Origin: Staphylococcus phage SapYZUs7
DNA length: 43,682 nt
Reading direction: 5' to 3' (one strand)
Sequence record: OQ828659.1
Shown here in pieces: positions 21,781 to 22,578 of this stretch (positions within the stretch are counted from its first letter, which is position 1; each line of letters begins with the position of its first letter). The translations under genes and the position numbers were made by a program. Below the pieces are notes generated by a model. That model was not told the DNA's origin and searched no databases. It was given only the letters and a program-made list of their open reading frames with translations.

Positions 21781-22578
21781 AGGCGTCATCGTTTCCAACG
21801 AAGATAAATGGGTTTACGAAATGCTTGGTATGGATTCGACTTGTCCTAAAGATGTTTTAACACAACTAGAATTTAGTGATGAAGATGTTGATATTATAAT
21901 TAACTCAAATGGTGGTAACCTAGTAGCTGGTAGTGAAATATATACACATTTAAGAGCTCATAAAGGCAAAGTGAATGTTCGTATCACAGCAATAGCAGCA
22001 AGTGCGGCATCGCTTATCGCAATGGCTGGTGACCACATCGAAATGAGTCCGGTTGCTAGAATGATGATTCACAATCCTTCAAGTATTGCGCAAGGAGAAG
22101 CGAAAGATCTAAATCATGCTGCAGAAACATTACTAGAATGATGATTCACAATCCTTCAAGTATTGCGCAAGGAGAAGCGAAAGATCTAAATCATGCTGCA
22201 GAAACATTAGAACATGTTGGTCAAATAATGGCTGAGGCATATGCGGTTAGAGCTGGTAAAAACAAACAAGAACTTGTAGAAATGATGGCTAGGGAAACGT
22301 GGCTAAATGCTGATGAAGCCATTGAACAAGGTTTTGCGGATAGTAAAATGTTTGAAAACGACAATATGCAAATTGTAGCAAGCAATACACAAGTGTTATC
22401 GAAAGATGTATTAAATCGTGTAACAGCTTTGGTAAGTAAAACGCCAGAGGTTAACATTGATATTGACGCAATAGCAAATAAAGTAATTGAAAAAATAAAT
22501 ATGAAAGAAAAGGAATCAGAAATCGATGTTGCAGATAGTAAAGTATCAGCAAATGGATTTTCAAGATTCCTTTTTTAA
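21752..22578 (+). pseudogene. ClpP-like (S14) prohead protease, split into two ORFs (21752-22141 and 22138-22578) by a 77-bp tandem duplication
   Basis: N-terminal ORF carries Ser (AIAASAASLIAMAG) and His (MMIHNPSS). C-terminal ORF carries the Asp region (NADEAIEQGFAD). The peptide MMIHNPSSIAQGEAKDLNHAAETL is encoded twice. Removing one 77-bp copy restores a single ~249-aa ORF. Confidence 0.8.
22056..22209. repeat. Exact 77-bp tandem duplication (22056-22132 and 22133-22209)
   Basis: Identical sequence CTAGAATGATGATTCACAATCCTTCAAGTATTGCGCAAGGAGAAGCGAAAGATCTAAATCATGCTGCAGAAACATTA twice in tandem. 77 is not a multiple of 3. Confidence 0.95.

Follow-up and report, generated by a model that had tools for sequence, protein, structure and literature searches.

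Is the head maturation protease gene of Staphylococcus phage SapYZUs7 broken by a mutation, or was the break introduced when the sequence was assembled and finished? The question arises from an exact 77-bp tandem duplication, which divides this gene (21764-22578), flanked by those for the portal and the HK97-type capsid protein, into 2 ORFs in the whole stretch of 43,682 nucleotides analyzed here (record OQ828659.1; hereafter, the window). A first-pass annotation of the same DNA had offered 3 readings, namely, a prophage defective for capsid maturation, an assembly or sequencing artefact, and a reversible slipped-strand switch. The evidence presented below favors the artefact, more specifically an assembler overlap, leaves the defective prophage, that is, an ordinary singleton pseudogene, as its main rival, and speaks against the reversible switch.

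The window comprises a single complete unit of an Sa3int (hlb-converting) S. aureus phage of the Biseptimavirus-like type. The gene order is integrase, lysogeny and replication genes, HNH, small and large terminase subunits, portal, protease, capsid, tail, holin, endolysin, and the sak-chp-scn genes, and the common modules are 98-99% identical at the DNA level to those of phiNM3, StauST398-4, phiN315, and P282. The window begins exactly at the att core and stops one base short of the next core (position 43682). Since it starts at the att core and holds a single phage unit, the sequence must have been re-cut and is not an arbitrary chromosomal slice. The enterotoxin A gene, which phiNM3 carries between the tail module and the holin, is absent from the corresponding interval (37700-38200), and the immune evasion cluster is thus of the sak-chp-scn type. 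The endolysin is encoded in 2 pieces flanking sak (CHAP domain, 38492-39247; SH3b piece, 40618-40914), a family trait rather than a defect, because phiNM3 and P282 are annotated likewise. When phiNM3, StauST398-4, and P282 ORFs of 70 aa or longer which match the window at 85% identity or higher were checked for interruptions, no other conserved ORF was found to be split; the protease alone spans 2 frames. The portal gene directly upstream and the gene for the major capsid protein, the presumed substrate of the protease, are both intact (Table 1).

Table 1. Features of the window discussed in the text, numbered from its first base.
Feature	Coordinates	Strand	Remarks
Sa3int att core	1-13	+	CCAGTTTGGATAC; same sequence as the attP core annotated in phiNM3
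Integrase, Sa3-type	72-1133	-	collinearity with phiNM3 and P282
Portal protein	20593-21780	+	395 aa, intact, directly upstream of the protease
Protease fragment 1 (ORF1)	21764-22141	+	125 aa from the ATG annotated in phiN315
77-bp unit, copy 1	22056-22132	+	sequence CTAGAATGATGATTCAC...GAAACATTA
77-bp unit, copy 2	22133-22209	+	same sequence as copy 1
Protease fragment 2 (ORF2)	22138-22578	+	146 aa, MMIHNPSS...
Major capsid protein, HK97-type	22602-23747	+	381 aa, PF05065, intact
sak (staphylokinase)	39438-39929		collinearity with phiNM3 and P282
chp	41009-41458	-	collinearity with phiNM3 and P282
scn	42143-42493		collinearity with phiNM3 and P282

Direct string comparison of the 2 copies revealed identity at 77 of 77 positions, and Tandem Repeats Finder reported a period of 77 with 2.0 copies, 100% matches, and a score of 308, so that the repeat is verbatim, as had been noticed at first pass. 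An exact 77-nt repeat cannot arise by chance. The unit corresponds to residues 98-123 of the protease (ARMMIHNPSSIAQGEAKDLNHAAETL), including the catalytic His103 (codon 22070-22072). Its edges are exact and the identity extends not one base further on either side (G at 22055 versus A at 22132; C at 22133 versus G at 22210), with the novel junction reading ACATTA|CTAGAA at 22132|22133. Inspection of the single-copy and junction sequences disclosed no microhomology at either breakpoint of the duplication; the short repeat closest to the breakpoints, TAGAA, is offset by 3 nt and would yield a unit of 74 bp. Across 78 loci comprising 758 kb of DNA from related phages, only 2 exact tandem duplications with a unit of at least 20 bp were found, both with a 33-bp unit. 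These lie in IMG/VR prophage contigs (L011, from position 11085; L045, from position 14121), and their length preserves the reading frame.

Deletion of one copy restores a gene of 738 nt encoding a protein of 245 aa, or of 249 aa from an upstream GTG, in agreement with the single ~249-aa protease predicted at first pass, and the single-copy version of the gene shows 0 mismatches to SA1775 of phiN315. The restored 245-aa protein scores 165.5 bits against the NCBIfam model NF045542 ("head maturation protease, ClpP-related"; cutoff 120), which bears out the original assignment as a ClpP-like prohead protease, and 109.9 bits against the Pfam family PF00574 (Clp protease; cutoff 20.2). A phmmer alignment to 6wr2 matches Ser80 and His103 to the catalytic residues Ser97 and His122 of Escherichia coli ClpP, and the position of ClpP Asp171 is occupied by Glu152. 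The duplicated segment covers the His strand and the beginning of the part that corresponds to the handle helix in the ClpP alignment.

In the window as given, a single uninterrupted protease frame is absent, broken by the 77-bp insertion. Because 77 = 3 x 25 + 2, the second copy brings about a frame shift and an early stop: the first fragment, for which a GTG at 21752 provides an alternative start (129 aa), ends in ...AAETLLE, with the stop codon located 3 codons past the junction. This fragment retains Ser80 (22001-22003) and His103 within the N-terminal portion of the ClpP fold, and the second contains the second copy of the His motif, Glu152 (22294-22296), and a C-terminal extension of ~75 aa. 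The division into 2 ORFs, with the first ending at 22141 and the second restarting at MMIHNPSS, and the presence of Ser and His in the former are thus as the first-pass annotation had them; the "Asp region" that it assigned to the second ORF is indeed located there, whereas the residue itself is Glu rather than Asp. In its position between the portal and capsid genes and in its Ser80/His103 pair, the gene resembles those for other head maturation proteases of Sa3int and Sa2int phages (SA1775 of phiN315, gp41 of phiNM3, and gp04 of P282; NF045542), from which it differs in being interrupted by the 77-bp insertion, such that the full-length protein is not encodable.

Recoding across the junction was considered and rejected, given the stop 3 codons on, the absence of a slippery site, and the lack of a Shine-Dalgarno sequence before ORF2. 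A real but harmless duplication is conceivable, in which both fragments would be made through termination-reinitiation and would reassemble into an active split protease, aided by the duplicated 26-residue segment. The overlap of the ORF1 stop and the ORF2 start as ATGA is compatible with this arrangement, and each fragment still scores as part of a Clp protease domain (76 and 52.7 bits for fragments 1 and 2, which as written match positions 42-133 and 109-177 of the 182 profile positions). However, no Shine-Dalgarno sequence was found in the sequence upstream of ORF2, and the break falls directly after the His strand, where the alignment to the handle helix of ClpP begins. This helix is needed to align the catalytic residues of ClpP, and we know of no split version of the ClpP-related head maturation protease family. 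Reassembly of the 2 fragments would therefore seem to be the least probable of the readings weighed here, close to negligible.

If the duplication is real, it is best pictured as a very recent tandem duplication in this one lysogen which knocks out the head maturation protease, an explanation that we consider possible but doubtful. The ClpP handle helix and all that follows it would be missing from fragment 1, and the Ser-bearing core from fragment 2. In HK97-type capsids, the protease must remove the N-terminal scaffolding domain of the capsid protein before the head can mature. Proheads would then form, the scaffolding domain of the capsid protein would stay in place, and no infectious particles would be produced, leaving a freshly grounded hlb-converting prophage able to excise and lyse, in which slippage or recombination could occasionally restore the gene. 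In favor of this explanation, the duplication is present in the sequence as given, and the remaining conserved genes are whole (integrase, repressor, lysis genes, and sak-chp-scn), which fits a first inactivating hit.

How widespread the duplicated form is bears on all of these readings. Comparison with related phage protease genes, one of the checks proposed at first pass, revealed one copy of the unit in 45 of 45 GenBank phage records at 99% identity or higher, with the 827-nt query aligning onto 750 nt; P282, which has its own listing as a phage, likewise has the protease gene in single copy. The 24-mer spanning the duplication junction was found 0 times in GTDB species genomes, IMG/VR, and JGI metagenome contigs, with the wild-type junction being present on 69 IMG/VR contigs and the duplication junction on none of them. 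At the protein level, the exact wild-type 245-aa sequence was encoded on at least 1,000 contigs and a 247-aa start variant on 214, and searches of the same protein index for fragment 1 with 5 alternative starts matched 0 contigs. Fragment 2 (146 aa) had exact matches on 5 contigs (L002-L006), all of which start at its ATG at the contig edge and do not contain the junction. Because fragment 2 is there a partial gene at a contig edge, these matches say nothing on the duplication. The duplication is a singleton.

These counts weigh directly on the proposal of a programmed reversible slipped-strand switch, that is, a phase-variation-like control of virion production through gain and loss of the 77-bp unit. 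Tandem direct repeats of this length are inherently unstable, precise loss of one copy could return the gene to wild type, and RecA-independent deletion between tandem repeats is established. Furthermore, revertible duplication variants exist in S. aureus (PMC6686034). A switch, however, would also need a high forward rate, and the single-copy sequence holds no in-register direct repeat at the breakpoints, so that only the collapse of the duplication, and not its formation, would be frequent. Consistently, the duplicated state was encountered in none of the 45 phage records, none of the 69 IMG/VR contigs, and none of more than 1,200 contigs encoding the exact protein, and a second duplication described in the agr study never reverted (PMC6686034). 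With no repeat-prone sequence to regenerate the duplication and no recurrence in other genomes, reversion is expected to be one-way and leaky at most, and we regard a programmed switch as highly improbable.

The same phage genotype is also present in other assemblies. Exact matches to the 1514-aa tape-measure protein, which is specific to the lineage, occur on only 4 contigs in the index. One contig, L080, from the Logan assembly of SRR30001072, equals window positions 16955-38111 (21,080 bp) at every base except for the 77 bp, and another, L079, a 71-kb contig of GCA_041923445.1, shows 1 mismatch (window position 40755) over 24.5 kb. In each of the 2 contigs, the unit is present once and the 245-aa protease is whole. 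In Logan contigs, each 31-mer is present once by construction (PMC12424806). As 31-mers are unique in such contigs, a well-supported 77-bp tandem repeat would break L080, which is unbroken at k = 31. Hence, at least one read set with this exact phage genotype has the single copy. The 2 contigs need not derive from the isolate of the window, and a mutation after divergence of the isolates would give the same picture.

The search for the duplication in k = 31 Logan assemblies was further extended to partial proteins, and 7 of the 8 contigs retrieved begin at a C/T single-nucleotide polymorphism at position 22101 (equivalent to 22178 in copy 2). Only L083 begins at the position predicted for the duplication, 22180; this contig has 3 differences from the window and fits the background rate of random contig starts. 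The contigs which begin at the C/T site inside the protease gene are L081, L082, and L084-L088, and the polymorphism is seen in 6 of 73 relatives, which suggests that many isolates carry 2 prophages with a common head module differing at 22101, breaking k = 31 assemblies. The ERF recombinase was found on thousands of contigs, and the matches fetched for the left half of the sister prophage came from unrelated phages only.

Taken with its length, the exactness of the repeat points to the way in which the sequence was put together: the duplication is probably an untrimmed 77-bp k-mer overlap left by the assembler, which became internal on rotation of the genome to begin at the att core. With reads of ~100-150 nt, SPAdes would by default proceed through k values of 21, 33, 55, and 77, with 77 as the final one. 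A circular or circularly assembled molecule would then be written as a linear contig with its first 77 bases identical to its last 77, and adjacent contigs in a de Bruijn graph assembly would likewise overlap by exactly k bases. If such a contig were re-cut at the att core without trimming one end, the identical ends would come to stand side by side; by an alternative route, 2 overlapping contigs may have been pasted end to end. In either case, the outcome would be a perfect tandem repeat, k bases long, which lies inside the sequence at no particular place and lacks microhomology. In the protease gene, such a lesion mimics a frameshift because 77 is not a multiple of 3. The version with a rotated circle implies that the phage must have assembled as a circle.

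The behavior assumed for the assembler has been described: with SPAdes run at k = 21, 33, 55, and 77, the contig ends of circular genomes are identical over 77 bp and are to be trimmed before rotation (PMC8767329). The repeat in the window, 77 bp at 100% identity, has the length of the largest default SPAdes k, and it shares with such terminal overlaps its complete identity, the lack of microhomology, the arbitrary position, and the occurrence once per genome. It differs in that the copies of a terminal overlap are normally found at contig ends, whereas those in the window are adjacent and internal, which requires the additional step of rotation or concatenation without trimming. Misplaced terminal repeats and frameshifts caused by assembly errors are reported to be common in phage submissions (PMC8785237).

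Several observations jointly favor the artefact, namely, the length of 77, the missing microhomology, the re-cutting at the att core, the singleton status, the single copy in the same genotype, and the unchanged remainder of the genome. In bacteria, short tandem duplications made by slippage usually lie between short direct repeats. The missing microhomology thus points to the artefact, because a pasted overlap needs none and slippage usually does. In the same vein, the gene is otherwise identical to SA1775 and the other conserved ORFs are whole, which fits a purely editorial lesion. By our rough estimate, a match to a standard assembler k is ~20-100 times likelier under the artefact, given that several hundred lengths are possible for real duplications, and this gain in likelihood, again roughly estimated, outweighs a prior that may favor real mutations. 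The length of 77 could nevertheless be a coincidence, and for a source assembled from long or Sanger reads it would have to be. Directly observed are the exact anatomy of the repeat, its uniqueness, the single copy in other assemblies of this genotype, and the beginning of the window at the att core; assembly of the source with k = 77, followed by rotation or joining, is what we infer.

One variant of the artefact, a join of 2 contigs at a graph branch, would predict either a polymorphism beside the unit or different nearest relatives on its two sides. The bases flanking the unit (22055 and 22210) were polymorphic in 0 of 73 relatives, and the nearest relatives are the same ones on both sides of the junction. 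Because the flanks are invariant and the relatives unchanged across the junction, a contig join at a branch of the assembly graph is without direct support, and this applies in particular to a join of 2 contigs at a branch created by a single-nucleotide polymorphism. A chimera of 2 prophages was rejected, the same nearest relatives being found on either side of the junction.

Against an untrimmed overlap stands, above all, the real loss-of-function duplication introduced above. Its length would coincide exactly with a default assembler k, its breakpoints would be without microhomology, and no other assembly has it, including the 2 of the same phage genotype. On the other hand, independent truncations of the protease occur elsewhere in S. 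aureus. Shorter forms on record include P0002, which has 141 aa, ends in a frameshifted stretch (...AVQSW), and lies on a 3.0-Mb contig, and P0006, which has 76 aa and is found on 8 contigs of up to 374 kb; P0003 belongs to the same cluster. Thus, independent disruption, or mis-sequencing, of the protease gene recurs in S. aureus assemblies, and because other shortened forms are present in public genomes, real inactivation of this gene would not be rare. Sa3int prophages which excise without releasing virions have also been described, PhiSa3XN being one in which the defect is unmapped (PMC12607152).

If the duplication is real, the prophage would resemble such grounded prophages, or cases of "active lysogeny" (PhiSa3XN and PhiSa3mw), in that the integration, regulation, and immune-evasion genes are whole and virion production is blocked. 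PhiSa3XN (strain XN108) is nevertheless a different phage, which carries sea-sak-scn, and the lesion in the window is a singleton absent from its closest kin. A second parallel is the agrC duplication plus inversion of S. aureus, which reverts to the wild type at about 2% (Gor et al. 2019, PMC6686034). In both cases, a duplication causes loss of function and could collapse to the exact wild type; for the agrC variants, reversion has been shown by experiment, whereas the duplication in the window is known from sequence alone, and recurrence of the forward event was not seen. The duplication might also be real and act as a metastable lock, with the prophage excising and re-integrating (beta-toxin restored, "active lysogeny") and no virions being released until the rare precise loss of one copy restores the protease. 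Such a lock is in our view highly improbable; if true, it would provide a defined genetic basis for virion-less Sa3int prophages.

What follows from the locus depends on which of the main readings holds. If the repeat is an untrimmed overlap, the record gives the false impression of a defective prophage, exceeds the true length by 77 bp, and would be annotated with a pseudogene or 2 false proteins; more generally, phage genomes with finishing errors could be flagged cheaply by looking for exact tandem repeats in their interior with the length of a k-mer (55, 77, 99, or 127). A real duplication would add a further case, useful and unsurprising, of a prophage which loses a morphogenesis gene and keeps its virulence cargo, and could be a candidate cause of excision without particle formation in Sa3int prophages.

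Two further groups of repeats were noticed in the window. Direct-repeat arrays are located at 11625-11746 and comprise a 30-bp repeat (2 copies) and a 15-bp repeat (3.5-3.9 copies), partly as an AT-rich run of the TAA type. They lie within the ORF at 11210-12085 which, by synteny with other S. aureus phages, probably encodes a replication organizer of the Phg_2220_C type and is followed by a putative DnaC-like loader; the arrays look like origin iterons. The octamer GTCCCTAA occurs 4 times in the window, only as 2 direct pairs with a spacing of 11 bp (expected by chance, 0.63; 4 occurrences reached in 0 of 100 shuffles). The pairs are located at 52-70 and 43561-43579, one inside each end and adjoining the att core, and plausibly represent arm-type binding sites of the integrase on both att arms.
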